Source of the DNA: a virus
Taxonomy: Duplodnaviria; Caudoviricetes
DNA: 54,454 nucleotides
Virus record (IMG/VR): IMGVR_UViG_3300032892_000002
Location: 1-54,454 of that record
Reading direction: 5' to 3' (one strand)
This document shows positions 12,794 through 46,299 of the stretch, piece after piece. The position numbers were made by a program, and so were the translations under genes. Each line of letters starts with the position of its first letter. The first letter of the stretch is position 1. Below the pieces are notes generated by a model. It was not told where the DNA came from and searched no databases. It saw only the letters and a program-made list of their open reading frames with translations.

Positions 12794-15700
12794 CTATTGC
12801 GCGGTCCCGACCGCCAGCGCCAGCTCAAGCCGCATCTGCGACTTCTGCTCCGGAGTCGGATACGCCGGGCCGTAAAAGTTCTGCGTGATCGCCCCCCCGG
12901 TTTTCCGGCCTATGGCGTCGGCGATCGCCTCACCCAGCTTCGTGTACTCCCCAGCCGGGACCATCAGCTCCGGTGATGCGGTCATGTTCACCGCCGCGTC
13001 GCCGGGCATCAGCATCCCACCGTCGTCGGCTTTCGGCAGCTTCGACTTGGGCACCTTGAACCACTTCGCTGCTTCCTGCGCCAGGACCTGCCCCTCATGC
13101 TTGAACACCGCATCCAGTTGCGCCTGCTGCGCCTTCAGCCCGGCTAGGAAACTCGCACCCGTCCCCGACAGCCCGTACACCGCGTTCGCAGCCGTCTGAC
13201 CGACCAGCGTTTCTGCAGCCGAAATCTGCGTCTCCGTCGACGACAACGCCTTAATCAGCGAAGGGCCGCCGGCGAGGATCTCGTTCGCGTACTGCAGCCC
13301 CTGATCCGGGCCGAGCGCCACGATCTGCTGAATCAGACCCGTGTTCACCTTCGACGTCTGCAACCTCCGCAGCACCGCCGCGAACGCTTTCAGATTCGTC
13401 AGCTTCTGCGACATCTGGTACTGCAGATACTGCGGCCCTGTCATGAACTTCGTACCGCGCGCTGTCCCCACATACGCCGACCCGAGCGCGGCGGTCGAAA
13501 TGTCCGCATACCCGGCCAGGTTGCCCGTAGTGGTCGATGCGTAGGACTGCGCTGCGGCCATTTTGTTGTCGACGGCGGTGATTTTCGCCAGCGTGCCTTC
13601 CATGGCTTTGACCTGGCGGGTGACCATCGCGTCCCGCCACTTCGCCGACGCGCCTTTGTAGTTTTCGTTGACGATGCTGACGAAATCTTTCAGCATCTGC
13701 GCCAGCCCAGCGGGGCTTTCGATCCCTGCCGGGGACGCGAACGTGGCAGCGAGCCACGCACCCTGGGATTCTTCGTGCGCGAGCGCGGCGCGGGATGCTG
13801 CGCGGGCGGCGGCCCGCTGCCGTGGCGTCGCAGCCGCGTGATGAGCCGCCGGATGCCGGGCGGGGGGTGTCCGGTCCCGCCACCGCCACTTGCCATCAGA
13901 CGACCGGCGGCACACCAGATTCCCATGAACCCGGTTATGCTCGGACCGGGAGCAGAACTCACCACCCCGAGGCGTCCCCGCCGCGTAACCCGCCTCAACT
14001 CCCGCCATCGCCGACGTCGCAGCGTCCATCACCTGCTCACCGCCGAGCATATGCACCAACTCGGGACCTTCTTCACCGACAACCGCCCACCCCGGCGCCG
14101 CCCCCCCGACACCGTGCTGATACCAGTGGTACGCCATCTCATGAGCCTCAGCAGCATCAGGCGAACCGTACGTGCTGTTCCCGGTTAGGAACACCTGACG
14201 TCCCTGCCGAGCCGTCCACGTACCTAGTCCAGTGGTGGGGCACCAGACCCGTGCGGTTCCAGCGTCCTCACGTCTGATGGCCTTACCGCCTATGAACGGT
14301 TTGGTTTCCGCGATGTTCGCACCGGAACGCCGCGTGACCGGGTTCCTGGTCCACTGGTGAAACGCTGGCCGTTTGCCGCTGAGGTATATCATCACGGCGA
14401 TAGCGTCCTGCTGCGGCCCGTCGGCCTGCGCGTAGCTGATCTTCCCGGGATAGGGACCTTTCCCGCAGATAAAGCCGGGGCGTGCCTGGTGACCGTCGGC
14501 GCCGAAAACGCCGCGCATGAACGCGTCACGTTGCGACGGTGAAATGGACAGCACGAACGGCACCGGATCGCTGTGATCGTAGCCGCTGCGCTTGAGCAAC
14601 TCGGCAGAATACGGGCGGCTCAGATGCCAGTAGATCATCGGAGCCCCTGGCTGCCCGTCCGGCGTTTTGCCGCCGGTGCGGGTAGTGCGGTTGACGACCA
14701 TTTCGGCGGTGAGATCGTCGATCCGCTGCACGTGATCTGGTTTGCTTGTGGACTGGCACAGGTTGATTTGCACCGATTTGCAGCCTCGGGCGGTGCGCCA
14801 GTGCTTGCTGTCAGGGGTGCGTGACTTCAGGTACTGTACGTGCCCGTCGCCGAGGATCCAGCCGAGCAGTTCCGCCTCGATCTCGCTGATCGCGGGGCCG
14901 TCGCCTGTGCTGGCAGGTGCTGCTAGCCGGACCGAGTCATGCGCTGTGGTGATCTTATCCGCTTGGACAAGTTCGTCTGTCCGGCAGGACGGGCTGTATC
15001 CGCTCAGGCGGGTGCCGTGGCCGTCGCTGCGGCGCCCGTCGATCTGGTGCAGCCGGGAGACAGCCCAGCGGTGGTTCGGTGTGCATGTCACGTCCCACGT
15101 TTTGTTCCGTAGCCTGATCAGCGGAGCGTCGTCGTAGACGTGAACGTCGGTGATGGGCGTCCATTCGCTTTGCCTGGTTTTAGGGTTGTATCCGATCGTT
15201 TCATCACCTGGGACGACGCGATCGCAGGTTTTCCAGCCTTCCCGCGTGAGAATCTGCGTATCCGTATCCATACAGGCGATATAGGACATCATCCATCTGA
15301 GCTGTGTCTGCGGGTTGGTCCGCCAGTCCGCGCCTGCTGACGCCATCTTCGACGCCGGCAGGGCTTGGGGGATTCCGTACGCCCCCGATGAAGGGTTCAT
15401 CGCGCTGGGGTTCCAGCCCGACTCTGCCATGACCAGGGCGTTGAATGCGTCCCATTGGCCGGACCAGCCCATTGCGGCGAGCAGCGCCCGGGCCATCTGC
15501 TGGATCGGGCCGTTCGGCACCGAACCGGGGATGCCGCCCATGGCCTGCGCCTGCTGCTGCGCCGTTTTGGCGGCCTGGTAGACGGCGTTTTCCAGCCCGG
15601 AGATCATGTCGGCGGATTCGGCGTTCAGATTGCTGATCGACCAGTTCGCCAGTCCCCTGACACCGCTGGGGCCGCTGCCGGAGTAGTCGGGCACGATCCC

Positions 15701-18700
15701 GCCACCCTGGAACCCGGGGATGCCGAGGGCTTTGAAAATGTGCGCCAGCAGCGACGTGTGTTCTTTCGGGACGACCGTCTCGCCGGGTTCGGCGAGCAGC
15801 GGCACGACATCGCCGCCGCCCCAGCCGGGGATCCGGCCGCCTTTCGCCATCCCGGCCCGCGCCGCTGTTCCGGGTGCCAGCCCGGACGGGCCGGTGAACT
15901 TCTGCGCGATCGACCAGCTGCCGGTGGCCGACATCTGCAGCTTGGTGAAATAGTCGGGCCGGATTTTGCTTTCCGATTTGGCGAACGCATCCACCGCGCC
16001 GGTCAGGTTGTTCACCCATGTGTTGGCTGTCTGCGCGTCGATGCCAGCTTTTTCGAGATCCTTCAGCAGGTGGGTGCGGGCGCCTGCGGTCTGGCTGGAC
16101 TTGTCCCCGGTTTTCTGCACCGCACCGGCGAGCTTGTCTATATCCCCCGACGCGGACGGAACTGTATTCAGGATCGTCTGGGCATCGTCGTTGAACTTTT
16201 TCCGCGCCGCGTCCGTGCCGGTAAGCGTGCTGCCGTATTTGGTGACGTTGCCGGTCAGCGTGGTGATCCCGGCGGCGCCCTGCGCGACCAGGCTGTTCGC
16301 ATCGTTCTGCGCCTTGTTGACCGCCTGCAGTGCACTTTGGGTGGCCTGAGCGTTGGGCCCGTACTGCTTCAGGTCCTGCAGATATGTGAGGGTTTTCGCG
16401 GACACCCCAGTCAGCTGCTCGGCCTGGCTCACCAGCGTCTGGTTCAGCGTCGACTGGATCACCTGGGCCAGGTTCTGCGCATCCACCCCCAGGTTGGCCA
16501 GGGCTTTGCCTGCCTGCCCGGTCAGCTTATCCAGTGTCCCCATTGGGTTGGCGACCTTACCTGCCCACAGGGACAGGTTCCGCAGCGCGTCGGGGCCTTT
16601 GTAGTCTGCTTCCTGCGCGAGCGCGTAAATCTGGTCCCGCGCCTCACTGCTTTTACCGGCCAGCGGGATCAGTGCCACCACCGACGCCTGGATCGCTTTG
16701 ACCAGCGGGCCGCCGTCGCCGGTGACCAGCGCCGCTGTGCGCAGCGAATCCAGCATCGGCTCGATTGAGCTGACGACCGAGTTGAAATCGGTCCGCAGCT
16801 GGATCGCGGCGGTCGTCATGTGCTTGGCCACCGGCTCGGCCTTGGTTCCGAGGCCGCTCAGCGACGCGCCCGCCGCTCCGGCGTCAGCGGAGAACTGCAC
16901 CATGTTGCGGGCGAATGTCAGAAACGACGTGCTCGGCGCCTGCACCGTCTGGATGAACGTGTCCCACGCCTGGTTCAGCTGCGACACTTTGCTGCTCTGC
17001 AGTTCGGTGGCGACGGTGACTGCCTGCTCGTCGGCGCCGAGCGTCCCCATGACAGCTTTCAGGCCACCGTAACCGGCGGCCAGGTTCTGCACCTGCTGCC
17101 ACATTTCTCTGAACGACTCACCGACCCGCAGGTTCGCCAGGTTCGCGACCGCCAGCGCCTCCGGGTAGCTCACCCCGTACGTCTGGGACAGCTTCCCGAT
17201 CAGCCGCCCCGCCGTCGCTACGTCCCCTTCCTGCTGCTGCGCGCTGGCATGGTAGGCGTCGGCCTGGGTTTTGAACATTTCCGCGTTCTGCCGCATCGTG
17301 AACGCGAACTGCGAGTTTTTCTGCCACGTCTGCGCGGCGACGTTGCTGTAATGCTGCGCCGACGCCGCCGCCTTGTCCTGCTGCTGGGTCAGCAACGTAA
17401 CGTTACTGATCGCCTGGTCGAGGCCGGTGCTGAAGTTCACGTTGGACAGCGCCTGCTGCATCTCGGCGCCCATCTGCCCGGCCGCCTGCTTGCCCTGGCG
17501 CATCAGCTGGATGATGCCGATCAGCGCGCCGCCGACAAGCCCGGCACCGACCAGCGTGGCCGGGTCGGCGATGCCTAGCAGCGCCGCTTTGAACCCTTCG
17601 ATCCCGGCGCGGCCCGCTGCCGCGTTTTTCACCGCCGTCTGCACGGCGCTGCCCCACGCGCCGATCGCGGTGGTTTCGGGCATCAGGTCGGCGAGGCGGC
17701 TGATCGGCCCGAGCAGCCCCGTCAGCGCCGTGGTCGCGAGACCGCCCCAGCGGTTGAACCCTTCGATGGCGAGCCCCGCTTCGACGAACCATCTGCCGAC
17801 CGGGTTCTGGGTGATGCTTGTGACAACGGCAAGAAGGTGGCTGAACCCGTCGAACACGTCGAGGATGACGTTCGCGATCCCCGGCATGGCGCGCAGCAGG
17901 TTGGAGAACGCGACACCGAGGTTGCCGAGGATCTGCCCGAACTTGGTGAGATCGGGAATGCCTTCCTGCTGGATGACATTGATGAACCCGCCCGCACCGG
18001 ATTTTACCCACAGGTCGATTTTCGCGGCCCACTGGTCGAACACGGTGGTGGTGCCGATCGCCAGGGTGCGGAACACGCCCATCGAGTTGCCGACCGCGTT
18101 CAGCGCGCCGCCGTAGATTTCCAGCACCCCAGGTGCGACAGCCTGCGCGACTTTGTCGAACGCGACGTCAACGGCGGTGAGGTCCTGTTTGGTGGCGTTG
18201 GTGACGGTGCTAAGGGCGATGAAATGGGTGAGGATGTCCTCGATCGCCGGTGTCGCGGCGGCGGCGGCGGCGGCGGCGGCGGCACCGAGGGCGATCATCG
18301 CGGGGACGGCGACGGCGCTGAACTCGAACGCGGCAGCGGTCAGCAGATGCCACACGGGGGTGGCCGCGCCGAGCGCACCGCCGAACAGTGACACCCGCGT
18401 GGTGAGGAAACCGAACGCCCCGCCCGCTCCCTGGGCGGCGATCCACAGGCTGCTGGTGCCCGCCGCCGCGTCACGGGTGGCCGTGGCGGCGGTTTCAGCT
18501 TCCGCCGCCAGCGCCCTGGTCGCGATGGTCGCCGACGCGATGGCGCCTGAATCGACGTCGAATTTCAGCCCGACCCGCTGCCCCGGTTTCGACGCGGCGA
18601 GCGCCGCGTCGATCGCCGCGTCGGCTCTGGCGACGCTGGCCATGTCCGGGGATACGTCAAGTTTTATCTTGGCGTCCGGAAGGTCCTTCAGTTTGGCGGC

Positions 18701-18791
18701 GATCTCAGCCAGGTCGCGGTCGAGTACGTCCTGATCAGCGCGGACTTCGACGTAAATACGCCGAAGCGATCCGGAAACCTTCCGGCGGCAT
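12794..18791 (-). CDS. Tape measure protein with lytic transglycosylase domain and intein; 5' end needs a +4-nt hop at a TTA codon
   Basis: Long Ala/Gly-rich helical protein after the tail chaperones; SLT motif (AESGWNPSAMNPSSGAYGIPQAL). ATG 18791 with SD GGGGGTGG reads MPPEGFRIASAY, then changes frame at TTA 18755-18753 into VEVRADQ. Confidence 0.9.
14177..15274 (-). mobile_element. Intein (366 aa) with LAGLIDADG homing endonuclease
   Basis: Starts CMDTDTQILTREGWK, block B TCTPNHRW, LLGWILGDG and FMRGVFGADG motifs, ends VWCPTTGLGTWTARQGRQVFLTGN with +1 Ser; removal rejoins WMMSYIA|STYGSP. Confidence 0.93.
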
Positions 18792-18817
18792 CGGCGGACC
18801 ACCCCCGATCGGCGGAC

Positions 18818-19216
18818 CTACGCCTGCGTGCTTGCGGGGACCCTGCTGACCGTTCCGTACATGCCGACACCGGGCGCCGGGGCGATCAGCCGTTCCAGCT
18901 CATCGGTGGTGACTACGGGCTGCTGCTGCGCCAGCCGGTGATACCGCAACGGATCATCCTCCGCCGGTGGCGGGTAAGAAGGACCTTCGCCGTCTTCCCG
19001 TTCCTGCTCGGCCATCTCGGCTTTCAGCCGCATCTGCACCGCACCCTGATACGACGGCAGCAGCAGCGCCATCCGCACAAACACGGCAGCGTCCAGCGCG
19101 GAAACATCGCCAACCCGGTGGAACGTGGAAAAATCGGAGACAACCTCGTCTAGCGCTTGCGAGATCCACCGGGTTTGCGCGTACCATTCTGCCCACTGCT
19201 CACGCCAGTTTTTGGG
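18818..19216 (-). CDS. Tail assembly chaperone, -1 frameshift extension (gpT-like)
   Basis: The -1 frame is open from the slippery site (PKNWREQWAEWY...) to the stop at 18818. Confidence 0.75.
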   Translation of the reverse strand, partial: PKNWREQWAEWYAQTRWISQALDEVVSDFSTFHRVGDVSALDAAVFVRMALLLPSYQGAVQMRLKAEMAEQEREDGEGPSYPPPAEDDPLRYHRLAQQQPVVTTDELERLIAPAPGVGMYGTVSRVPASTQA

Positions 19217-19524
19217 ACCAGTTTGTCCGGGTCGCCGCCGAGCCCATGTTTCAGGACCACATCCATCAACTGCGCCAGCTGTTCTTTGCTGATGTCCTCA
19301 CAGTCGAGCGCCGCCTGCCACGTTTCCTCACCGAGCACTGTCACCATGACATGCTTGACGGCGACGTCGACACCCCGTTCGGCGACGATGGCCATGTACT
19401 GCAGCGGCAGGTTCCCCGGCGGGTGCGCGAGCATCGTGTACATGTCGGCGCCGATGGAGAAAATGTCGACCCGTTCCTCGGCTGCCGCCTTGTCCCGGGG
19501 CACGATTTTGATGATGTCTGGCAC
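19150..19524 (-). CDS. Tail assembly chaperone (gpG-like)
   Basis: SD AGGTGG before GTG 19524; ERVDIFSIGADMYTM..VLGEETWQAAL; directly upstream of the tape measure gene. Confidence 0.8.
   Translation of the reverse strand: MPDIIKIVPRDKAAAEERVDIFSIGADMYTMLAHPPGNLPLQYMAIVAERGVDVAVKHVMVTVLGEETWQAALDCEDISKEQLAQLMDVVLKHGLGGDPDKLVPKTGVSSGQNGTRKPGGSRKR
19210..19216 (-). other. Programmed -1 frameshift slippery heptamer C CCA AAA
   Basis: X XXY YYZ heptamer in frame near the end of the chaperone; the -1 frame matches the 18818..19084 ORF. Confidence 0.75.
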
Positions 19525-19619
19525 GTGTTTACGCCACCTGAAGTCTCGCAGGGTGAGGATGAAACCCTTCCTGGCGAACAGAAACGCTACGCAGAGCAGG
19601 GGGATGATGCTGGTGATGG

Positions 19620-19745
19620 TCAACGCTGCGGCTCTGGTGGGCGTCTAGGTTGCATCGGTTGCCAGCGGGCGGCGCATTCGGCGCACATCGCTGCAGAGTC
19701 GAGGTCGCCGCTGTCGATGCCGCATTTGAAACAGTAACCGGTCAC
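19620..19745 (-). CDS. 41-aa CxxC...CxxC micro-protein
   Basis: MTGYCFKCGIDSGDLDSAAMCAECAARWQ..., preceded by GGGGG; below the ORF-track cutoff. Confidence 0.45.
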   Translation of the reverse strand: MTGYCFKCGIDSGDLDSAAMCAECAARWQPMQPRRPPEPQR

Positions 19746-19818: not shown

Positions 19819-20400
19819 CTAGCAGCCGTCATAGGGAGCCCAGGGTGCGGTGCCCTGCTCGGCGTAGAGCTTCCAGAATGCTTGGTTCTGCTCCCATACC
19901 GGGGCATTTTCCGGCAGTCCGGAGTACCCGAGTGCAGCGAAAGTTGACGGCAGGAACTGGTACAGGCCACCGGCGCCGGATGTGGGGTTGACCGCAGTCG
20001 GATCGCCGCCGGATTCGTGCTGGATGACACATTCCTGGAAGCCGGACGCACCGGACGAGGTTGAGGCTGAGGTCGCGGGGATGATCGCGGCTTGTGGTGT
20101 CACCGCGATCGCGCCGCTCAGGCTGACCTGCTGGCCGGGGTAGATCAGGTTCGGGTTGGCGATCTGCGGGTTGGAGGCTTCGACGGTGGCCAGCGGCAGC
20201 CCGTTGCGGGCCGCTATCCCGCTGAGCGTGTCACCGGGCACCACGATGTAGCTCGCTTCGCCGTACGCTGCGGGCCGTGTCTGCGCGGCGGTGTGGGCGG
20301 GGGATGCGGTGGCTGCTTGCGCGGGCAGCACGGTCAGGGTGGCTGCGGACGCTGCCGCAGCGGCGGAGGCAGCCAGGGCGGCTGCGATACGTTTACTCAT
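19819..20400 (-). CDS. rpf: Secreted LysM + resuscitation-promoting factor (Rpf)-like transglycosylase
   Basis: Signal peptide; LysM (YIVVPGDTLSGIAARNG..NPQIANPNLIYPGQ); Rpf core CVIQHESGGD..GGLYQFLPSTF..EQNQAF..QGTAPW..C. Confidence 0.88.
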   Translation of the reverse strand: MSKRIAAALAASAAAAASAATLTVLPAQAATASPAHTAAQTRPAAYGEASYIVVPGDTLSGIAARNGLPLATVEASNPQIANPNLIYPGQQVSLSGAIAVTPQAAIIPATSASTSSGASGFQECVIQHESGGDPTAVNPTSGAGGLYQFLPSTFAALGYSGLPENAPVWEQNQAFWKLYAEQGTAPWAPYDGC

Positions 20401-20467
20401 AACGGGCAAACGTAACGGGACGATAACGAGCCTGTATGGTGAACGGCGCAAAACAGTCCGCTAGGGT

Positions 20468-23354: not shown

Positions 23355-26300
23355 TCATCCCGGGGTCGCGGTTCCGGTGATGTTCTGCGGGACAGCGCCG
23401 CCGGTAACGTTCTGCGGGACAGCGCCGCCGGTAACGCCGGGTACGATCAGCGGTTTCAGGTTGACCAGGCCGTGGACCCCGCCGAACCTGGCGCGGGTCA
23501 GCGGCGGTGGCCGTCTGCCCGGTACGACCGGTACCGCGTATTGCGGCGCGCCGAGCTGGGTGACGACGCGGCTGGCGTAACCGGCGGCACATTGCCAGCG
23601 TGGGCCGATCCGTGACCGTGCAGGCAGCGGCGGCCGCCACACGAATGGCCGCACCGGAACAGCGGTGACCGGCTTGTTGTACAGCCCTGCGGACCCGCCG
23701 GCGGCCTGACCGCGTGGGCCGCATCGGCCCCTAGCTGGGAGCGGGGACCGCCAGATGAACGGTTTCGGTGGCCCGAGCGCACCGAGCGGCGGGTGCGGTA
23801 CCGGGATCCCGGCGCCGGCGGTGCCGCGTGGGCCGATCCGGGCGGAGGCGTGCAGCGGGGACCGCCACACGAACGGTTTCGGTGGCCCCAGCGCGCCGAA
23901 TTGGGTGAGAACTCCGCCGCGGCCCGCTGCTGCGGTGCTGCGTGGCCCGGTGACCGCCCGGTACGGTCCTGGTCGCCGTATCTGCGGCGCTGGGCGCTGG
24001 TATGTGGTGGCGAGCGGGATCGGCGCCGGGCCGGTGGTGCCGCCGGCGGTGGTGGTGTGCCCGGTGGTGGCGCGGGTGTGTTTCGGCGGGTATTGCGGGA
24101 CTTTCCGCGCGGGTGGCAGGGCGCCGAGCGGGACCGGTGGGGCGGTGTAACCTGCCGCGCATGTGCCGCGTGGCCCGAGTGTGGCCCTCGCCGGTGCGGG
24201 CCGGCGGATCTGCGGCGGGGTCCGCTGGTAGGCGCCGGGTGTGCCAGGGAGGACGGGTGGTGCGGGTGCTGCGGCGCCGTGCCATACCGCCCGGGCGGGT
24301 GCGGGGCGCTGGGCTTGTGGTGGCAGCGGGCGGTGCAGGACAGGCAGCGTGCCCAGCGGCACCGCCGGTGCTGCTACACCGTGCCAGAGCCCTCTTGCGG
24401 GCGCCGGGCGCCGGATTGCCGGTGCTGGCCGCTGGTAGGCGGTTACGACAGGTGGTTGCGCGGGGTAACCGGCGCCGTGCCACACCACCCGGGTCAGCGG
24501 CGCGGGCAGCCGTCCCGGCACCACTGGGACGGTGACCTGCGGCGGCCCCAGCAGCGGCAGGTTGTACAGCCCAGCAGTGCCTGCGCCGACCGCACCGGCA
24601 GGCCCTAGTTTGGCGCGCGCTGGTCCTGGCCGGCGGATCTGCGGCGAAACCCGCTGATACGCACCGGGGGTACCGGGGACCGGCGGGATGTACGGGCCAA
24701 GGACCGCGACATCGACCCAGTAGTTGGTCGCGTTGAAACTCGACGCCGGGTAGGTGAGAATCCCGCCGAGGTTGAATGTGTCCTGGCCGCCGTCGGCTGC
24801 GGCGTTGTCCGGCGCGAAGATGATCCCCGACGTGATCCCCGCTGCGCCGGGACCGGTGTCCCAGTAGTGCGTGGTCGCTGAGTACCAGCCGACGGCGGCG
24901 GACTGGCAGACGACCGCCTTGTACGGCACCCCGGCGGTGATGGTAACCGGGCCAGTGGCGGCTGCCAGGATCCAGCCGGTGGCGGCGGTGACCGGGAATG
25001 TGACCGCCGAACCCGCCACCGGGGTGCCGGTGCCGGGGCCGGTGACCTGGAACAGTTCAGCGCTGGTCGGCAGCGCGTCCCCGGCGGTGGCGCGCCAGAA
25101 CCAGATGCCGGCGAAGGTTGCGTTGACGCTGAGGGTGAACTCGACGCCGAGGGAGTAGGCGCTGGGGTCACCGGAACTGGTCGCGGGGCCGGGGGTGGAT
25201 GGCCAGATGCGGTAGGCGACGACCAGCGGCGCCGGTCCCTGGATCCCGGCAGCGCTCGTAGCGGGTCCGGTGACGGCGCGGCTGACCCGCCGCTGCCCGA
25301 TGATGATCGGGATTACCGGCTGCGCGGCTCCGGTGGGGGTGACAACCGTTGACGCGATCCCGGCTGCGCAGCCGCTTGCGGGTCCGACGACGGCGCGGGC
25401 CCGGGCCGGTCGTTTCACCGTCAGCGGCGGCAACCCGACCGGCGGTGCCGCAGGCGGTACCGCTGCTACGGCGGTGCCATGCCACAGTCCACGCGCTGGC
25501 GCTGGCCGGTATCTGTGGACAGGTGCAGCCGTTTGCGCGGCCGGTGGCAGCGGTCCTGGCAGGTTGACCAGCGCGGCGACGCCCGCGCCAACGGCACCGG
25601 ACGGACCGAGCTTGGCGCGCGCTGGTCCTGGCCGGCGGATCTGCGGCGAAACCCGCTGATACGCACCGGGGGTACCGGGCAGCGCGATCGGTGCTGGGCC
25701 TGCGGCGCCGTGCCACAGCACCTGGGCGGCCGCTGGGCGGCGGATCTGGGGCGCCGGCCGCTGGTAGGCGGTAACGACCGGCGGGGCGCCCCTGGCCGCA
25801 CCCGCAGCGCAAGCTACCGCCGGTCCGACATGGGCCCGCGCAGGGACCCTGCTGCGGGCGATGAACGGCCTCGCCGGCAGCAGGGTCCCCAGCGGAACGC
25901 CGCCCGCAACGCCGCCGTACGGGCCAGGTCGCGGACCCACCCACGCCCGCGCGGGTGGGCGGCGGGTGATGACCGGCCGCAGCTGCGGGGACGGTGCCGC
26001 GCCTGCCGGGTAGTGCGGAGCGGCGTACCCGCGCCACAGCACCCGCCGTGGCGGCAGATGCTGGATGACTGGGCGGGGGGCAGGCTGCGACGGTGAACCG
26101 AGCGGGGGTGCCGCGCTCGCGACACCGCCAGCAGCCTGACCTCGGGGCCCGGTGTGTGCCCGCGCAGGTGGCCGGTGAACGATGACAGGGCGGGGCGGCG
26201 GCTGGGTGAGATACCCAAGCGACAGCGACGGCCCGACCTGCCCGGCAGCGACGTATGTTCCGGGGCCGACTTTCGCCCGCGGCGACGCGGGCCGGAACCG

Positions 26301-27473
26301 GTGAACAGGCGCTGCTGCCTGCACCGCCGGCGGCAGCGGTCCTGGCAGGTTGACCAGCGCGGCGACACCGCCGCCGGTCTTACCGGACGGTCCGACCCGG
26401 GCGCGTGCCGGGGCCGGGCGGTGGGAAACGAATCCTCTGGCGCTGGCGGCTACCGGAACTGCTGGGGGCGGGGCGGCGATCCCGGCGCCGGTTTGCTGGT
26501 TTCCGGTGGTGGCGCGGCGCGGCGGCGGTGGGGGCCGATGACCGGGTGGCCGCTGCTGCAACGTGATCGCAGCAGCAGCGATCGGTGGGGACGGTGGGGA
26601 GATTCGCTGGCGGTGGCGGTTAAGACGCCGCCAGGTGGGGCCGCCGATGTGGGGGTAGTTCGGCGACGGAGCCGACGTGGCGCCGGCGTTTTCGATTTCG
26701 ATGCCGAGCAGGGTCCAGGTCTGCCCGGTCGGTGAGGTGATGCCGAGAGTCTGCGACCCTGGCGCGGTGGCGATCTGGTACGCGTAATAGGCGGTGTACA
26801 GGCCGCTCTGGGTGGTGTAGCCGTCTTGGGTGGGGACCGCTGATGTGCTGTTGTAGGTGGGGGTCCCGGATATGGCCGCCCAGTCGCCGTTGAGCCACGA
26901 CACAACGGAACTGGCACCGACGGTGGTGATCGTGGTGGACGGTGCGCCGGACCCGCGTGTGTCGACGGTGGCGGGGGTGGTCGCGAGTTGCGCCCCGGAC
27001 CAGCGTTCCACCACGATCGAGTTGGCGCCGTTGCCGGTGTGCGCCACCGTGACGGTCATCGACGCTGACGCGGTGACCGGCGCGGTCCAGATTTTGCAGC
27101 CGGTGTGGGATGAGGTTACATCCGACACCCACAGGGTGTAGGTGAACCCGCCGCCGGTCGGGGTGGACTGGACAATGCTGGAGGCATCTTCGGTGATGCC
27201 TTTGACGACGAGGATTTCACCGACAGCAGGGGTGAACGAACCGGTGACCGCGCTGCCGGTGCCGCCGGCCACGTACACCGGGTAGGAGGCGACCAGCAGC
27301 GGCGGGTCCGGCGGTATGCCCAGCCCACCAGCGCACACCGCCCCAGCGCCGACCCGCGCCCGCGCGGGTGCCGGGGGGCGGGCGACGAACGGCCGGACCT
27401 GCAGCGCGGTTGTGACGACCGGTACTTGCCGGATGTACGGCTGGCCCGGGAATGCGCGCCTGAAACGGGCCAT
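23355..27473 (-). CDS. 1372-aa Pro/Arg/Ala-rich repetitive fibre-like protein with an internal DUF4082-like domain
   Basis: Many (R)RPxPARA-(xGP|xWHG) repeats; globular insert YSLGVEFT..AGIWFWR..NYWVDV at about 24705-25215; N-terminal beta domain. Confidence 0.7.
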   Translation of the reverse strand: MARFRRAFPGQPYIRQVPVVTTALQVRPFVARPPAPARARVGAGAVCAGGLGIPPDPPLLVASYPVYVAGGTGSAVTGSFTPAVGEILVVKGITEDASSIVQSTPTGGGFTYTLWVSDVTSSHTGCKIWTAPVTASASMTVTVAHTGNGANSIVVERWSGAQLATTPATVDTRGSGAPSTTITTVGASSVVSWLNGDWAAISGTPTYNSTSAVPTQDGYTTQSGLYTAYYAYQIATAPGSQTLGITSPTGQTWTLLGIEIENAGATSAPSPNYPHIGGPTWRRLNRHRQRISPPSPPIAAAAITLQQRPPGHRPPPPPRRATTGNQQTGAGIAAPPPAVPVAASARGFVSHRPAPARARVGPSGKTGGGVAALVNLPGPLPPAVQAAAPVHRFRPASPRAKVGPGTYVAAGQVGPSLSLGYLTQPPPRPVIVHRPPARAHTGPRGQAAGGVASAAPPLGSPSQPAPRPVIQHLPPRRVLWRGYAAPHYPAGAAPSPQLRPVITRRPPARAWVGPRPGPYGGVAGGVPLGTLLPARPFIARSRVPARAHVGPAVACAAGAARGAPPVVTAYQRPAPQIRRPAAAQVLWHGAAGPAPIALPGTPGAYQRVSPQIRRPGPARAKLGPSGAVGAGVAALVNLPGPLPPAAQTAAPVHRYRPAPARGLWHGTAVAAVPPAAPPVGLPPLTVKRPARARAVVGPASGCAAGIASTVVTPTGAAQPVIPIIIGQRRVSRAVTGPATSAAGIQGPAPLVVAYRIWPSTPGPATSSGDPSAYSLGVEFTLSVNATFAGIWFWRATAGDALPTSAELFQVTGPGTGTPVAGSAVTFPVTAATGWILAAATGPVTITAGVPYKAVVCQSAAVGWYSATTHYWDTGPGAAGITSGIIFAPDNAAADGGQDTFNLGGILTYPASSFNATNYWVDVAVLGPYIPPVPGTPGAYQRVSPQIRRPGPARAKLGPAGAVGAGTAGLYNLPLLGPPQVTVPVVPGRLPAPLTRVVWHGAGYPAQPPVVTAYQRPAPAIRRPAPARGLWHGVAAPAVPLGTLPVLHRPLPPQAQRPAPARAVWHGAAAPAPPVLPGTPGAYQRTPPQIRRPAPARATLGPRGTCAAGYTAPPVPLGALPPARKVPQYPPKHTRATTGHTTTAGGTTGPAPIPLATTYQRPAPQIRRPGPYRAVTGPRSTAAAGRGGVLTQFGALGPPKPFVWRSPLHASARIGPRGTAGAGIPVPHPPLGALGPPKPFIWRSPLPARGRCGPRGQAAGGSAGLYNKPVTAVPVRPFVWRPPLPARSRIGPRWQCAAGYASRVVTQLGAPQYAVPVVPGRRPPPLTRARFGGVHGLVNLKPLIVPGVTGGAVPQNVTGGAVPQNITGTATPG
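23382..23435. repeat. 27-bp tandem direct repeat x2
   Basis: GTTCTGCGGGACAGCGCCGCCGGTAAC twice; encodes VTGGAVPQN repeats. Confidence 0.9.
24610..25679. repeat. 68-bp exact direct repeat pair (24610-24677 and 25612-25679)
   Basis: TTGGCGCGCGCTGGTCC...GGGGGTACCGGG identical in both copies, 1002 bp apart. Confidence 0.9.
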
Positions 27474-33143: not shown

Positions 33144-34727
33144 CTAGTACAGCACCCACGCGGTTGACAGGGTTCCGGTGTAGGTGACCGTGTACGACTT
33201 CCCTGACGGCACCGCTACCGGCCCGACATCGGTCCCGGCGGTGATCGGCAACGTGAGACCACCGACCGACACAGCGGTGATCGACCCGCCAGACGTGGAT
33301 AGCCACACTTGGGCGTCGCGGTAGTACCAGTTGAATTGCGGCACGGTCGACGCCGGCGCGGCTGGTGCGCCGGCGGTCTGCGGCCCTGGTGGCATGTTTT
33401 TCTGGATGACCCGAAGGTTCGCGCCGCCGGTGCCGATCCCGCCGTCCTGGTAGTGGCCTGAGCCGTTGACCCGCCAGCCGATGGTGCCGATGCCGTAGTT
33501 GTTCGGATCGAAAAACGCGCCGGCGGATTCGACGTCGAGGGTCTCCACGTCGATGTTGATGGTGTTGTCGAGGAAACCGATGGCCTGCTGGCACACTTCG
33601 GCGCTGACGTAATTGAGCTGACCGGCGTGCGGCATCGGGGTGCCGGCCCCGGAGTATGTTTCGACACCGATGATGCAGTACACGGCCCGGATCGAGTCGG
33701 CGGCCGTGTGCTCGGACGGCATCACCCCGTAGCACAAGCCTTCCGCTGACCACCAGCCGATGTTGCAGTTGTCGTTGTTGTTGAACGACGGCATCCGCAG
33801 CCCGAACGTCCACTGGTTCGAGATGTTCGCCGAGTTCACCATCGTCGGCACTATCGGCGTCGGCGGCGGCACAGCAGCGGCCATACACGCCCCGGTGATC
33901 ACGTTTGCTTCGGCGAGGCCCCAGAAATCCCACCCGCAGTACGTCGTGTTGTACGGCACCAGCATCGAGATACCGTCGACAGTGACCAGCAGATTGGTGA
34001 CAGTTCCGCCGCCGTAACCGTTGTACGGCCCACCAATGACCGACGCTGGGCCGTTCGCTATATCGTTGGTGCCGTCGGCGCGCATACAGGCCAGCACGGT
34101 CCCCGACGCCTGCGGGGTCTGCTGCAGCCAATGCGGCAACGCGGTCACATCCAGCACACCCCGGTACACGATGGTGATTTTCTGCGACGTAGGCACGATG
34201 ATCGGCAGCGGGATCTGCGCGTTCCCCAACGTGGCGCCCCCGATGACCGGCGCCCCGGCGATGCAGTACATCAACGGGTCGAAGATTATCTCTGCGTACC
34301 CGTTGCCTGCCTGCGCATAGGCGACAGCGGCAGCCTGCGCAGCCGCGATCGCAGCAGTGTCGTCAGTGCCGTAGTACGCGACCGCCTGCGACACCGACGA
34401 CGTGGCCGCCGCTGCGAGGGTCGCCGACCCGGCCCCAGCTGAGGAGATCGTCGTCGCCAGCGGCGTGAACGCGCCGCCACCCGCCCCGGACACGACGATC
34501 GCTTTTCCCGCGTCGGCGGCGGTGATCGACGCCGACGTGAACGTGTGGCTGCCGATCGTCATCGCGCCGTCGCTGACGACTTTGCCGTTACCCACCGCAC
34601 CGTACGTCGACGCGACGAAGCCGCCGACGTAGAACTGGTACGGGAAAAAGTACGGTGCAGGCACTTCCGGTGTCACCGCCCCTTCTTCTTGCAGAGCGGT
34701 CCACAGCGGGTTCAGCCGGGTACGCAC
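33144..34727 (-). CDS. Beta-helix/fibre-like virion protein
   Basis: YGAVGNGK..DAGKAIVVSGAG..GTDDTAAIAAA followed by beta-helix-like segments. Confidence 0.6.
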   Translation of the reverse strand: MRTRLNPLWTALQEEGAVTPEVPAPYFFPYQFYVGGFVASTYGAVGNGKVVSDGAMTIGSHTFTSASITAADAGKAIVVSGAGGGAFTPLATTISSAGAGSATLAAAATSSVSQAVAYYGTDDTAAIAAAQAAAVAYAQAGNGYAEIIFDPLMYCIAGAPVIGGATLGNAQIPLPIIVPTSQKITIVYRGVLDVTALPHWLQQTPQASGTVLACMRADGTNDIANGPASVIGGPYNGYGGGTVTNLLVTVDGISMLVPYNTTYCGWDFWGLAEANVITGACMAAAVPPPTPIVPTMVNSANISNQWTFGLRMPSFNNNDNCNIGWWSAEGLCYGVMPSEHTAADSIRAVYCIIGVETYSGAGTPMPHAGQLNYVSAEVCQQAIGFLDNTINIDVETLDVESAGAFFDPNNYGIGTIGWRVNGSGHYQDGGIGTGGANLRVIQKNMPPGPQTAGAPAAPASTVPQFNWYYRDAQVWLSTSGGSITAVSVGGLTLPITAGTDVGPVAVPSGKSYTVTYTGTLSTAWVLY

Positions 34728-36880: not shown

Positions 36881-37578
36881 CGTTCACCACCGCCCCGCCG
36901 CAGAGCCCGTATCTTCGCCACGTCCCCAGCCATCCGCTCCGCCCGCCACACCTTGTACGCCTGCTCGTCATGCTGCACATGCGGCCACGCGTCCCGGTAC
37001 GTCGCGTCCCACTGCGCTTTCCCGGTGACGTGATGCTTATGCGGCACCAGCACGTCCCGCAGATACGCAAGGCACCCTGCCGCTTCGCCGAGGTCGTGGA
37101 CCACGTTGTCGACCCACCAATGGTTCAGCGACGGCTCACACATCCATCCCAGCGCTTCCGCGATGTCCGACGACTGGATCCACGCTTCACACACATCGTC
37201 GCGGATCTGGTCGTTCGGGTACGCGAACCCCGTCCCCCCCATCCCCGCGACCGCTTCCAGTAGCAGCTTGTCCCAGCCTTCGGTGACTGGCACATGGTCG
37301 TCGCCGAACGACCCCAGATGGCGGAACGACCCAGCCGCATACGACGCCACGTAGTTCGTCCACCCGGCCAGCCCTTTACGCGGGCCTGTCACCACCGACC
37401 CGGGGAACCCGCCCGCTTTCGCCGCCGCCCGGTTCTGTTCGAGCGCGGGGTCGTCGTCGTCGAAACAGAACACCACATCGGTGCGGGCCCGCGATGTGGT
37501 TTTGACGGTGCGGGCGAACCGGGCCACGTTCCCTGGCCGTCCCCGCGACGGGACGATCAGCAGCAGGTCAGGTCGCAT
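36877..37578 (-). CDS. GT-A fold (GT2-like) glycosyltransferase
   Basis: LLIVPSRGRP, FCFDDDD, GSFGDDHVP..GWD and HWWVDN motifs. Confidence 0.8.
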   Translation of the reverse strand: MRPDLLLIVPSRGRPGNVARFARTVKTTSRARTDVVFCFDDDDPALEQNRAAAKAGGFPGSVVTGPRKGLAGWTNYVASYAAGSFRHLGSFGDDHVPVTEGWDKLLLEAVAGMGGTGFAYPNDQIRDDVCEAWIQSSDIAEALGWMCEPSLNHWWVDNVVHDLGEAAGCLAYLRDVLVPHKHHVTGKAQWDATYRDAWPHVQHDEQAYKVWRAERMAGDVAKIRALRRGGGER

Positions 37579-39274
37579 CAGCAAACGGTACTGTGATCAG
37601 GCCGAGGCCGAATTCGCCGCCCATCTCCTCCCACACCAGCCCCGTCTCCGCGCAGTACGTGTCCAGCGCCCGGGCCACCGGGAACCCGTCACCGGGCTCG
37701 AACTTCGTGTCGTGCGCCAGTACCGTCCCGCCGGGCCGGACCAGCGGCACATACTGCCGCAGCTCCGCCAGCGTCTGGTCATAGGAATGGGGGTCGACGT
37801 CGAGGAACAGCACCTCCACCTCAGACGGCAGCTGCGCGATCACGTCGGGGTCGAGGTCGTCGCCTTTCACGAAGGTCCACAGGCCGCTGCGGGCCCAGTT
37901 CGCAGGTACCTGCGGGCCGGTGATGTCGACCGACCACACGTGCCCGCCGCACATCTCGGCCGCGGCCAGGAACGCTGACGTTGAGTTGCCGGACCGAACC
38001 CCCAGTTCGATGATCCTCGGCCCGGCGTATTTCAGCGCCGTGTCCCGCAGCACCGGCAGGCTGTCCCGCATGTCGGACCACTCACCCAGCCGCCGCTCGT
38101 AGTCGTCGCCGATCGGTTCCGCTTTGGCCGCCATCTTGTCTTCGAGCGCCGCCAACGCTGGGAGCCAGAACTCGTGGAACACCCGGTCAACGTCGTACCC
38201 GGCGGCGAACTCGCGGGCCTCTTTGCGGCGGGTGTCGTTCATCGGCCACTCAGCGAACGCCTCCTCATACGCGGCGATGATCCCCGACACCGACGGGCAC
38301 ATCCACCACGCCACATGCCCCGGCGCCCAGATCGGCTGGCCTTTCACCTTCCACCCAGCACCGCACAGCTCCGACATTGCGGACCCGTCGGTCACCACCA
38401 CCGGCGTCCCGCACGCCTGCGCCTCCAGGATCGGCAGCCCGAACCCTTCAGCGAGAGAACAGCACGACAGCACATCCAGCACCTGATACCACTGCGCCAT
38501 CAGGTCCCGCCCGACCATGCCGCACACGTAGGCATGCTGGTCCGGGTACATCACCGCGTCGGTGATACCGAGCCGGTCGGTGATTTTTTTCAGGTTCAGC
38601 CCGCCGACCGGCTCCGTGTTGATCGTGGTGTGCAGCACCAGGCGGCTGTTTTCGTGCCGCTCATGGAACTTCGCGAACGCCAGCAACTGTTCAGGGAACG
38701 CCTTACGGTTCCCCGACTCCTTGTTGATCGCGTTGATGCCGATCAGGAACGTGCTGGCCCCGACGCCCATCGATTCGCGGACCTCGTCCCGTTCCGCCGG
38801 GTCAAGCGGGCGGAACAGGGTGGTGTCGACGCCGTGGGGGATGTACAGCGGGTCGTATCCGGCGTCGCGTAGCTGGGTTTCGCCGAACCGGCTGAACGCG
38901 ATCGGCCAGCCTCCGGATGCGTCGAGTTTGGTCCGGTCCCCGTCGCCGAGGGGGGCGCAGTCGACAGGCATCCAATGCGCCACGTTCAGCTCTTTGAGTG
39001 GTTCCGCGTTCATCGCGAACACATCACACAAGGTGATCATCAGGTCGGCGCGGCTGTACCGGTAGTGCGACGCGATGACGTCGGAGCCGTAGGGGTCGAG
39101 ACCGCCGGGCAGGATGGTGAACCCCTCCCAGCCGAGGACGCTGCCGGTCATGCTGTACGGGGCGCTGATCGTTACGTCGTGGCCGGCCGCCTTGAGCCGT
39201 GGCACCCACAGAGCGGTCTGGGTACCGTACCCGCTTGTTATCATCGGGGCGTTGGAGTTCCACAAAATGCGCAC
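37568..39274 (-). CDS. GT4 glycosyltransferase fused to a class I SAM methyltransferase (Methyltransf_24-like)
   Basis: SNAP..SGYG, IPHGVD, EGFGLPILEAQACGTPVV; C-terminal IIELGVRSGNST, LFLDVD and VLAHD. Confidence 0.9.
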   Translation of the reverse strand: MRILWNSNAPMITSGYGTQTALWVPRLKAAGHDVTISAPYSMTGSVLGWEGFTILPGGLDPYGSDVIASHYRYSRADLMITLCDVFAMNAEPLKELNVAHWMPVDCAPLGDGDRTKLDASGGWPIAFSRFGETQLRDAGYDPLYIPHGVDTTLFRPLDPAERDEVRESMGVGASTFLIGINAINKESGNRKAFPEQLLAFAKFHERHENSRLVLHTTINTEPVGGLNLKKITDRLGITDAVMYPDQHAYVCGMVGRDLMAQWYQVLDVLSCCSLAEGFGLPILEAQACGTPVVVTDGSAMSELCGAGWKVKGQPIWAPGHVAWWMCPSVSGIIAAYEEAFAEWPMNDTRRKEAREFAAGYDVDRVFHEFWLPALAALEDKMAAKAEPIGDDYERRLGEWSDMRDSLPVLRDTALKYAGPRIIELGVRSGNSTSAFLAAAEMCGGHVWSVDITGPQVPANWARSGLWTFVKGDDLDPDVIAQLPSEVEVLFLDVDPHSYDQTLAELRQYVPLVRPGGTVLAHDTKFEPGDGFPVARALDTYCAETGLVWEEMGGEFGLGLITVPFADAT

Positions 39275-39323
39275 TTTCAGCACCACCTCCTCTCGTGTGG
39301 CCGAAACGGACCTGTAATGGAAA

Positions 39324-43751: not shown

Positions 43752-43964
43752 GTGGACAACCCATTCGGCTGCCGGTGCAACGCCATGGGCGCCGGCTACC
43801 CATGTATCCGCCACGCTGACGCCGAGGACATGCTCTGCTCACGCTGCCGCACATCTACGACATGCAGCTACTCACGCGCATCCCAGGTGGCCGCGGCCGA
43901 AGCGGCGGCGCCGCCGAACAGGTCGCCGTCGCGGACCCGGATAACACCCCAGCCGAACCGCTGA
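43752..43964 (+). CDS. Small antisense Cys-rich protein
   Basis: CRC..PC.RHADAEDMLCSRCR occupies the only gap in the - strand operon here. Confidence 0.5.
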   Translation: MDNPFGCRCNAMGAGYPCIRHADAEDMLCSRCRTSTTCSYSRASQVAAAEAAAPPNRSPSRTRITPQPNR

Positions 43965-46299
43965 GCCTCCCCAGACACGATCTCCGACGTGTCGAACCTG
44001 GCCACCAGTTCCGGCCACAACCGCCACACCTCAGCCCGGTCGTCGCCTTCGCTGGCGATGTCATGCACCAGAATCAGCCCACCCGGGCGGACAAGCGGCC
44101 CATACATCGCCAGATCCTGCCGCACCCCCGCCACCCGGTGATCCCCGTCCACAACCAGAACATCCAGCGACCGGCCCTCAAGTTTCGCGGCCAGCCAGTC
44201 TCTGCTTGACAGGTCATGTGAATCACCGACATGCACCACAGCGCCGTGCGCCGCCAGCTTCGCGCCGGTACCGCCGGTTTCGTACGAGTTGTCCGCCAAA
44301 GTGATGCCGTACACCTCGGCACAGATCTGCCGCCACGCGTACAACGTGCCGCCCTGATCGCAGCCGATCTCCGCCACCACCTGCGGCCGGGTGCGGTGCA
44401 GCAACGTCAGCACCTCGGTCAGCTCATCCAGGCACTGCGACGCGCCGTGCGCCATCGCCGCCGCCGCTGCCGTGTGCGCGTTGAACCCTTCCGGCCGGGC
44501 GATCACATAGCCCTTGTACACCGGCAAATCACGGAACGTGTACCCCAATTCGGCGAGCAGCCCGTCGAGGTCTTCACGGTCGTAAAACCCGTACACCGAA
44601 TGATCTTCGATGAACAGCACCGGGCGGCACCGGTCCAGCGTTTCCCGCATCCCCCGCAGCGCATGCAGATCCGCGCCCTCAACGTCGAGTTTCACCAAAT
44701 CGACACGCGGTTCGTCTTTCAGCACCGCGTCCAGCGGCACACCGGGGACTTTCCGCCCATCAGGGCCCCCGGTGTCGCGGACCATGTTCGACCCGTCGCG
44801 GGCGAACCCGTTGGGGCTGTGCAACGTCAGCATCGTGAAATCGTCCCAGGCCGCCACATTGTGCACCGTCGCGCAGGTGATGCTGTTCAGCTCAAGGTTG
44901 CGTTCCAGCTGCTGCACCGTTTCGGGGCTCACTTCGACGGCGATGACTTTGGATGCTTTCGCGGAGGCCCGCACCGTGTAATGCCCGACATGGGCTCCGA
45001 CGTCAAGGAAAACCCCGCCGGAGGGGAGGAGCCGCAGCACCGTCTGGTCGATCAGCGCCTCATGGCCGAGGGCCAGCCCGTCGCCGCTGGGTTCGGTGCC
45101 GCCGATCTGCCAGCGGAACCCGCCGTACCGGATGATCCCATCAGCCGCATCGCCGAGCCCTTCCTCAAGGTCAGCGAGCACCGGTTCCATGTACTGCCCC
45201 GCCACCACGTCCGCGTCGTACTGCAACGCGAACTCGCGGCATTCCGCCGAATACGTCCGCTCGAGGGTGCCGTCTTTCCACGCCCGGTACGCGTCTTCGT
45301 AGGCGGCGGCGAGGTGACCCACATACGGTTTCGTCCACCACGCGTGGAACGGCCCCACCCAGTACGGCTCCCCCGCGACTTTCCACCCAGGGCCCGCCAG
45401 TTCCGACATGGCGGAACAGTCGGTGACCACCGTCGGAATCCCGCAGGCCTGCGCTTCGATGACCGGCAGGCCGAACCCTTCACCCCACGTCGCCCCGGAG
45501 TACAGGTCAAGGGCGTTGTACCAGGCGGCCATGTCCGCAGCGGTGTACGACCCTGCGACATAGGCGTACGCGTCGGCCCAGCCGACCGCTTCGTCGATCC
45601 CCAGGTTCGCCGCCAAAGCCCGCAGATCGTCGCCGCCGCTGACCGTCGATGACAGGGTGTGGCACAGCAGCATCGTGTCCGGGTATTTCGCGTGCAGCCC
45701 AGCGAACGCGGCGAACTGCTCCGGGAACCCTTTACGGTTGGTGTCCTTGTTACACGCGTTGATCCCGATGACGAACTTGTCCTGCGGGAGGCCGAGCGCC
45801 CGGCGGATCGCGGCCCGGTTCCCCATCCGCCGGAACACAGTGGTGTCGATGCCGTGCGGGCAGTACAGGGCGCCGTGGCCGCCGCTGTCGAGGACCCGTT
45901 TCCCGAACCGGCTCATCGCGATCACCCTGGCGGTGGTCCCCGACAACGCCGCCTGGTCAAGCTCGCCCAGCGGTTCCCGGTCCACCGGCGTCCACATCGC
46001 CAGGTTCTGCCCCCGCAGCAACGCCACATCCTGCGCGAACGGGTCCAGCAGGGTGAACGTCAGATCAGCGCCGAAATGCTTCGCGTGGCCACCGATCACA
46101 TCGGATGAGAACGGGTGCAGCCCACACGGATACACGGTGATCCCGTTCCACCCGGTGCGGGCGCCCTGCAGCCCCCAGATCGCGGCGACCGCTACTTCGT
46201 GGCCCATTTTCTGCAGCCTCGGCGCCCAGATCGCGGTCTGCTGCCCGTAGCCGGTAAAGTGCCGACCCACGGGGCGTTGCTCACCCACAGGATCTTCAC
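43868..46299 (-). CDS. GT4 glycosyltransferase + FkbM-type methyltransferase + Methyltransf_24-like fusion; 5' end needs a +5-nt hop at a TTA codon
   Basis: SD GAGGAGG then GTG AAG ATC CTG TGG (MKILWVSNAPWVGT) in a different frame from GYGQQT...; EGFGLPVIEAQACG; FLDVGAHVG..VKLDVEGAD; AEIGCDQGGT..VDGDH..VHD. Confidence 0.88.

Follow-up and report, generated by a model that had tools for sequence, protein, structure and literature searches.

A candidate UUA-associated four-nucleotide ribosomal bypass at codon 12 of an actinophage tape-measure gene

The closest described systems to the site reported here are found in the terminase genes of Streptomyces phages. In phiHau3 the only two UUA codons of the phage lie in the terminase gene, each followed by a 10-nt frame-shifting block, and two Streptomyces prophages carry one such terminase block each, one of them given as 7 nt (Smith et al. 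2013, as cited in Antonov et al. 2023; PMC10732093). The passages of the latter article that deal with phiHau3 count UUA-linked bypass candidates in 3 of 100 terminase genes, and report that the full-length terminase product was seen in Streptomyces, and that mass spectrometry detected a junction peptide of the first site in E. coli when UUA was replaced by UAA (PMC10732093). In those same passages bypass is favoured over a +1 shift because the junctions are highly conserved, a +1 shift is said not to be excludable from sequence alone, and the evidence is graded as substantial support and not as proof (PMC10732093). Actinophage UUA-triggered bypass stands, so far, at three terminase genes and one experimental paper. 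Guided by the published g6/g7/g8 peptides (PMC10732093), we read both phiHau3 sites from accession JX182369. The first is GGC TTA CTC CGG T, then AAG, with the codon pair GGC/GGT, and the second is TCT TTA ACG GTC C, then ACG, with the codon pair TCT/TCC.

In gene 60 of phage T4, 50 nt are skipped, with a stop codon after the take-off site and a dependence on a long nascent-peptide signal and on a gap hairpin in the A site (PMC10732093, PMC5009743). Low-level bypass at slow A-site codons is treated as established in a passage citing refs 47-52 of its article (PMC10732093), and E. coli work on slow or ‘hungry’ A-site codons has described low-level hops as well as shifts (Weiss et al. 1987; Gallant and Lindsley; via PMC10732093). 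The parts of the review of Atkins et al. 2016 that mention phiHau3 as a possible bypass, together with the G/GT shift, make no mention of recoding in a TMP (tape-measure protein) gene (PMC5009743). Our own literature search, with most subscription journals outside its coverage, likewise found no description of recoding inside a tape-measure gene.

The DNA analyzed here, referred to as the window, is a single contig of 54,454 bases (~66% G+C) that constitutes the late-gene arm of an actinophage. The contig is incomplete: no terminal repeat was found in it, the terminase is absent, and the portal gene lies at the contig end. Within this incomplete contig no tRNA genes were found. The portal (52705-54435) shares ~40% identity with the portals of Streptomyces and Gordonia phages that measure at least 80 kb, and aligns with them as a single piece across 88-89% of its length; two Streptomyces genomes (L013 and L014) contain in-frame homologous TMP starts. 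Head-morphogenesis, minor-tail and Dit-like genes are present, with distal tail and minor tail genes downstream of the long ORF that is the subject of this analysis. Just upstream of this ORF lies a G/GT tail-chaperone pair, whose G frame stops at 19152-19150 and in which the heptamer CCCAAAA (19216-19210) leads by a -1 shift into a T frame that ends at TAG 18820-18818. The long ORF itself matches the PHROG tape-measure family (E 3.2e-19) as well as transglycosylase families, and its very great length, its position directly after the G/GT pair and its TMP homology identify it as the tape-measure gene, located where such a gene is expected.

All coordinates of the site are on the minus strand. 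The tape-measure frame comprises 2002 codons (ORF 12794..18802), and its only upstream start is the GTG at 18802, which sits within a Shine-Dalgarno-like run and from which the ORF reads VVRRCRRKVSGSLRRIYVEVRADQ. This run, GGGGGTGG (18806-18799), is placed 7 nt 5′ of an ATG at 18791-18789 that opens a different frame, the tape-measure frame being +1 relative to it. Translation from the ATG gives MPPEGFRIASAYLRRSPR, which is 18 residues long and terminates at TGA 18737-18735. The ATG and the 11 codons that follow it (18791..18756) encode MPPEGFRIASAY and finish with TAT (18758-18756), after which comes TTA (18755-18753). One base away from TAT in its offset is a second Tyr codon, TAC (18754-18752), which shares two bases with TTA and is followed by GTC (18751-18749). 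Joining the 12 residues of the first segment to residues 18-2002 of the long ORF yields a product of 1997 residues across a gap of 4 nt (3n+1, a net +1 shift), with the extra bases at 18757-18754. A first-pass annotation of the window had given the same coordinates, Shine-Dalgarno run, 18-residue dead end and 1997-residue precursor, and each of these agrees with our re-reading of the sequence. The features are as follows.

18799..18806, minus strand: Shine-Dalgarno-like run (from the sequence, and from the start of the next gene at 12763, which has a nearly identical upstream context).
18756..18791, minus strand: first coding segment, with candidate take-off codon TAT at 18758-18756 (translation; profile positions 1-12, E 1.1e-4).
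18753..18755, minus strand: zero-frame TTA (UUA), the candidate A-site codon at take-off (translation; codon counts).
18752..18754, minus strand: candidate landing codon TAC, synonymous with TAT (the long-frame Tyr is profile position 12).
12794..18751, minus strand: resumed TMP frame, which begins with GTC 18751 and ends with the stop at 12796-12794 (608 relatives; match to PHROG tail length tape measure protein, E 3.2e-19).
18735..18737, minus strand: zero-frame stop TGA, five codons past TTA, a dead end if TTA is decoded normally.
18800..18802, minus strand: alternative start GTG in the long-ORF frame, inside the Shine-Dalgarno-like run (with no such run 5-9 nt upstream of it).
18744..18767, minus strand: 10-bp RNA hairpin GCTTCGGCGTATTTACGTCGAAGT; the four extra bases (18757-18754) make up its 4-nt loop (folding).
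18771..18785, minus strand: 6-bp hairpin with GGAAGG, 12 nt 5′ of the take-off codon (folding, of doubtful significance).
19210..19216, minus strand: slippery heptamer CCCAAAA of the G/GT -1 frameshift (frame translations and heptamer scan).

Using the first 450 residues of the long ORF as a HMMER query against 1.84 billion protein representatives, we found 608 TMP relatives at a cut-off of E<=1e-3, the best of which are 38-42% identical. Seven among the best 150 of these 608 (P0111, P0100, P0050, P0067, P0107, P0011 and P0130) begin with the N-terminus MPxGFRIASAYVxV... in one frame, and in each of them the ATG-frame peptide runs in-frame into the long-frame sequence of the window, as in P0111, which reads MPDGFRIASAYVVVTLDQDQLDRDLADLETKL. 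An HMM built from the first 60 residues of the seven was searched against 1532 six-frame pieces of the window and gave two matches below E 0.01, the next best having an E of 0.76. One is the long frame (E 2.7e-6), which matches profile positions 12-57 from the Tyr onward, and the other is the ATG frame (E 1.1e-4), which matches profile positions 1-12/13; the split of this N-terminus over two frames is thus beyond chance. Both Tyr codons, TAT and TAC, map to profile position 12, and as they correspond to one ancestral residue the window holds four bases too many.

In the relatives both peptides belong to one frame and the junction has just one aromatic residue, as the first-pass annotation had expected of a profile comparison with tape-measure homologs. 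Exactly one aromatic residue stands between Ala and Val in all seven, and the same is true of four loci recovered at the DNA level, in which the junction reads GCG TAC GTC (L001), GCT TAT GTC (L002) and GCG TAT GTG (L013 and L014). The in-frame pattern was matched by 32 loci altogether, 4 of which were judged to be TMP starts and 28 to be chance-like or other proteins. Because the seven relatives and L001, L002, L013 and L014 are all in frame, the gap is a lineage-specific insertion, and it could be a recent one. A looser signature (small-x-small-aromatic-[VI]-x-[VIL]) was present in 28 among the best 150 of the 608 relatives, with the aromatic at positions 8-15; in the window this residue is at position 12 if translation starts at the ATG, and at position 17 if it starts at the GTG.

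Searches for further copies of the site were carried out at several levels. The motif followed by TTA gave 0 matches in viral, metagenome and genome contigs, in scans from which near-identical records may be hidden. Neither a DNA search of the phage collection with 18300-19700 nor a tblastn search of it with the N-terminal 450 residues of the TMP gave a match, and in a locus search with the N-terminal 400 residues 10 viral-contig and 365 metagenome-contig stretches matched the pattern, none of which was confirmed. A word-indexed protein search returned 6 proteins from 7998 candidates, 5 of them distant relatives. No diverged close relative keeping the site was found, there being no relative above 42% identity among the matches listed.

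The codon at the frame break is itself unusual. Codon counts were taken from the 33 minus-strand ORFs of at least 100 residues among the 58 ORFs of the window (plus-strand and shorter ones were left out), and only 2 of the 11,865 codons in this set are TTA, versus 34.7 expected from positional base frequencies. It is the rarest sense codon, the next rarest occurring 12 times. One of the two occurrences is codon 3 of an ORF with an uncertain start. The other clear in-frame TTA, at 49740-49738 (minus strand), lies in a head-morphogenesis (minor head protein) gene (ORF 49138-50253) whose frame continues normally, and the host must therefore decode UUA during late expression. We inspected every TTA triplet of the window, 90 on the minus strand and 82 on the plus strand, and saw no TTA-linked frame change elsewhere; a suspected second frame break at ~35600 turned out to be an ordinary gene boundary.

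From these elements we put forward the following course of events. The TMP would be initiated at ATG 18791, and after twelve codons a peptidyl-tRNA(Tyr) would stand on UAU in the P site with UUA in the A site. As the rarest sense codon of the phage, UUA is presumably slow to decode in the host, and a stall could result in which the tRNA releases UAU, to which it is held by a G.U wobble pair, the mRNA advances by four bases, the tRNA re-pairs with UAC by a full Watson-Crick match, and decoding restarts at GUC. The product would be the 1997-residue TMP with the canonical N-terminus of its family, and normal decoding of UUA would lead to termination five codons later. The anticodon of tRNA(Tyr) is GUA, which wobbles with UAU and pairs fully with UAC, and this better pairing would favour a hop in the forward direction. 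Both the stall and the hop are inferred from the layout, as are the efficiency of the hop and any role in regulation. We lean slightly towards some UUA-stalled recoding at this site, be it a hop or a +1 shift, and hold the 4-nt hop at TAT-TTA-C more tentatively, at somewhat below even chances. Of the earlier suggestion of a +4 hop from TAT to TAC, the alignment and the matched codons have held up, and the anatomy of the site proves to be like that of the phiHau3 sites; the hop itself stays a prediction from sequence, with a +1 shift and a start at GTG 18802 as its rivals.

The likeness to phiHau3 is considerable. In both cases an essential late actinophage gene has a rare in-frame UUA exactly at the frame break, with a take-off codon 5′ of the UUA, a synonymous landing codon 5′ of the codon at which reading resumes, and a net shift of +1. 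In both the protein alignment is continuous over the junction with no added residues, and the genome is otherwise nearly without TTA. At phiHau3 site 2 even the third-position change from U to C between take-off and landing is the same (TCT/TCC, versus TAT/TAC in the window). There are also differences. The phiHau3 gene is a terminase whereas that of the window is a tape measure, and the phiHau3 gap is 10 nt (7 nt given for a prophage) while that of the window is 4 nt, shorter than any described, so that the landing codon overlaps UUA by two bases. Moreover, phiHau3 has two sites and the window one, located at codon 12 where there is almost no nascent chain, and unlike phiHau3 the window contig has a second, ordinary in-frame TTA (49740). 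Recoding of the phiHau3 type would also call for a host in which tRNA-Leu(UAA) is limiting (control of the bldA type). Our best reading of the site, a tentative one that draws on this analogy, is that of a UUA-triggered bypass of the phiHau3 type in a new gene and with a minimal gap, and hence a variant of a recoding kind that is itself weakly established.

Other known systems resemble the site in part. As in T4 gene 60, a peptidyl-tRNA would re-pair at a matching, non-overlapping codon downstream, one protein would be spread over two frames and a hairpin involves the gap. In the window, however, a sense codon follows the take-off codon and just 4 nt would be skipped, so that neither the stop codon nor the gap hairpin of T4 can apply; with a chain of no more than 12 residues made by then, a nascent-peptide signal of the gene 60 type is ruled out as well. 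The hungry-codon hops of E. coli share the slow A-site codon and a nearby cognate codon, with re-pairing a few bases downstream, but they are unprogrammed or engineered, whereas the event in the window would be required for an essential protein. The lambda-type G/GT frameshift belongs to the same tail module and is apparently canonical in this contig (CCCAAAA); it works, however, by a -1 tandem slip on a heptamer and yields a second product, while the site described here would involve a forward shift for the only product.

A +1 frameshift at the same stall, in which the P-site tRNA does not re-pair and an incoming Tyr-tRNA reads the +1-frame UAC, would place two consecutive Tyr residues at the junction. 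It shares the stall logic of the hop, the UAC codon it would use is abundant (314 TAC versus 66 TAT in the ORFs of the contig), and the reading is open and aligns with the relatives except for one extra residue; for phiHau3, as noted above, a +1 event was likewise not excluded. That extra residue (TATT coding for Y) is at odds with seven out of seven relatives and with L001, L002, L013 and L014, all of which have the single aromatic. In addition, the +1 triplet AUU is not cognate for the P-site tRNA(Tyr), and the site differs from +1 shifts of the prfB type in lacking a Shine-Dalgarno-like run 3 nt upstream, the nearest such run, GGAAGG, ending 19 nt upstream. We consider the +1 shift improbable. 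A -2 shift, by which the protein would gain two residues, was set aside, as was quadruplet decoding by a special tRNA, there being no tRNA gene in the window (the contig, as stated, is incomplete).

The frame break might also involve no recoding. A lineage-specific 4-nt insertion could have broken the original frame, with the TMP now starting at GTG 18802 and a new 16-residue N-terminus leading up to the Tyr, where the old sequence takes over; the peptide of the ATG frame would then be either a relic of recent origin or a short leader ORF. From this GTG the long frame is open, gene callers on two contigs have chosen it, and it retains part of the signature in the form of a Leu four residues before the Tyr. 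Only a few TMP copies are needed per virion, and a weak start might suffice. Other points speak against this start. The GTG is itself part of the Shine-Dalgarno-like run, and no further run precedes it at 5-9 nt, the spacing found at other starts; the context upstream of ATG 18791 is near-identical to that before the ATG of the next gene (12763). From the GTG the aromatic residue falls at 17, outside the range of the 28 relatives with the looser signature, and the conserved GFRIASA is replaced; the first-pass annotation had called the N-terminus from the GTG inside the Shine-Dalgarno run atypical. With a random insertion, the matched Tyr codons and the TTA in the old frame would moreover have to be coincidences (TAY+T would arise in ~0.3% of cases by our own base-composition estimate). 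If the source of the insertion was a 4-nt tandem duplication the matched Tyr codons come free, but two further changes are then needed while the peptide of the first frame stayed at the family consensus. Taken together we regard the GTG start as unlikely, though a serious competitor of the UUA-stalled recoding that we favour.

Two other starts were considered. The window's own contig has a 1949-residue TMP call on record, which corresponds to a start at ATG 18643; this ATG has no Shine-Dalgarno-like run, and a start there would remove 53 residues, the signature among them. The second, an ATT at 18757, was set aside, as was a mobile-element footprint at TTAC, which had nothing else in its support. 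A separate observation concerns the region just before the gene: the T-frame stop TAG (18820-18818) and the TMP frame from GTG 18802 are in the same frame and 15 nt apart, and read-through of the TAG would fuse GT to TMP, but this arrangement, which has one chance in three, is probably a coincidence.

We take the four bases to be present in real DNA, with a small residual doubt. An identical 2002-residue ORF is found on two other contigs (24,537 and 20,358 bases; JGI and ENA), placing the four bases in three assemblies with contigs of different length from two archives. Six wetland-metagenome runs, all from one year, contain the stretch and may represent one population; no RNA runs are listed among them. 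In run X1 the stretch 18300-19300 is covered by a Logan contig with zero differences, though X1 may be the source sample. In run X5 a contig covering 18745-19236 with 0 differences includes the seven letters of the site, but extends only 7 letters beyond it, fewer than the 31 letters required for bridging; a hole follows at 18726-18744. Runs X3 and X4 have no contig across the site, and nothing was drawn from them. Among the run assemblies no contig lacking the four bases was seen, with the qualification that contigs drop rare variants. An assembly or sequencing artefact might be suspected given that the site forms the loop of a strong hairpin, and given that no run other than X1 bridges it by the 31-letter rule. 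Against this stand the same long ORF on the three contigs, the X1 assembly without a difference and the X5 contig end with its seven letters; four-base insertions, furthermore, are not a usual short-read error. That the four bases are absent from the real DNA is in our view very improbable. As a separate matter, one X3 contig of depth 2.4, which covers ~30 nt, leaves out two letters at 18797, between the Shine-Dalgarno-like run and the ATG, and this contig probably comes from another organism.

Real DNA could still encode a broken gene, the frameshift having arisen in a prophage that is defective or in a genotype that is not infectious and travels with its host in the wetland samples. The contig is incomplete as described above and so need not come from a free phage, and the wetland metagenomes of one year that contain it may be a single population. 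On the other hand, the genes that we inspected are intact (the portal, the 2002-codon TMP frame and the G/GT slippery site), the apparent break at ~35600 is a gene boundary, and the first-frame peptide still matches the family consensus. We judge a broken gene to be quite unlikely. The little probability left over after UUA-stalled recoding, the GTG start, a broken gene and an artefact is assigned to other readings.

Folding of the RNA around the site gave mixed results. The 30-nt stretch 18770-18741 has a predicted energy of -13.7 kcal/mol (z -4.14, with 0 out of 200 shuffles as stable), and the loop of the 10-bp hairpin within it (18767-18744) consists of exactly the four extra bases 18757-18754. 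This hairpin spans the site itself and cannot exist while a ribosome occupies the site. We also looked for a 5′ stem-loop and internal Shine-Dalgarno-like stimulators as in phiHau3; the GGAAGG hairpin upstream (18785-18771), at -7.7 kcal/mol with a z of -1.30 and 24 out of 200 shuffles as stable, falls short of significance. The whole 136-nt region showed no unusual structure (z -0.45, 66 out of 200 shuffles as stable). Hairpins were also seen at TMP starts that are in frame: in L001 (574-545, minus strand) one lies over the Ala-Ser-Ala-Tyr-Val codons with a z of -3.4 and 0 out of 200 shuffles as stable, and in L002 (10263-10292, plus strand) a weak one lies over the same codons with a z of -0.41. 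Since it is strong in L001 and weak in L002, part of the window hairpin may stem from the conserved coding sequence, and a hairpin at codons 9-20 may be shared by these TMP genes.

Several points count against the hop. A nascent chain of only 12 residues at the stall favours drop-off of the peptidyl-tRNA, the site is present in one lineage only, the other in-frame TTA of the contig (49740) is decoded normally, and the in-frame upstream GTG offers a route to the TMP that is free of recoding. The site was also picked from a very large scan, in which a one-in-a-thousand coincidence is possible. If the hop does take place, the four bases could conceivably be a selected switch by which TMP synthesis, and hence tail assembly, is gated by the supply of functional tRNA-Leu(UAA) in the host, an idea that we rate as unlikely. 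Such a switch, skipping just 4 nt, would be shorter than any other programmed bypass in nature; its landing codon would overlap the hungry codon, and it would work at codon 12 and without a nascent-peptide signal. UUA-sensing recoding would then reach beyond the terminase of a few Streptomyces phages and include another essential late gene, in an uncultured actinophage unrelated to these. Were the same codon anatomy at work in a second, independent gene family, there would be better grounds for regarding such recoding as a genuine class. A gap as minimal as 4 nt would make for a very small test cassette, and the tryptic peptide of the junction separates the hop, the +1 shift and the GTG start from one another. 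Gene callers have given this gene two wrong-looking TMP starts (2002 and 1949 residues), and such sites are thus invisible in current annotation.

The tape-measure protein and its surroundings exhibit a number of further features. The PHROG transglycosylase match ends at TMP residue 1176, and a 366-residue intein-like insert (TMP residues 1177-1542; window 15274-14177, minus strand) interrupts the conserved transglycosylase motif at this point. The first residue of the insert is Cys, it contains the LAGLIDADG-like stretches LLGWILGDGHV and FMRGVFGADGH, and it ends ...VFLTGN followed by Ser. The transglycosylase motif is unbroken in P0036 and P0086, the same insert is found in P0027, P0111 and P0067, and P0123 has it at another conserved site of the same domain. 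The insert had no match in PDB sequences or NCBIfam and only LAGLIDADG_3 in Pfam (E 0.28), and a single-sequence AlphaFold model of it (pLDDT 32.5) was uninformative.

Elsewhere in the tail module, between the tail genes and the G/GT pair, 19819-20451 (minus strand) encodes a LysM and transglycosylase-like protein (Pfam LysM 3.4e-11, Transglycosylas 2e-08) that is probably secreted, and which comes on top of the transglycosylase domain within the TMP. A gene at 23355-27473 (minus strand) encodes a Pro/Ala/Arg-rich protein of 1372 residues with two globular stretches and roughly two dozen loose repeats of the RP-x-PARA-x-VGP type; the protein has no PHROG match, and G+C rises locally to 0.746. 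Finally, two large glycosyltransferase genes (43868-46288 and 37568-39286, minus strand), one of them fused to methyltransferase domains, lie within the structural module, and a pectin-lyase-like protein is encoded at 33144-34727; a role of these genes in virion or host-surface glycan chemistry is possible.
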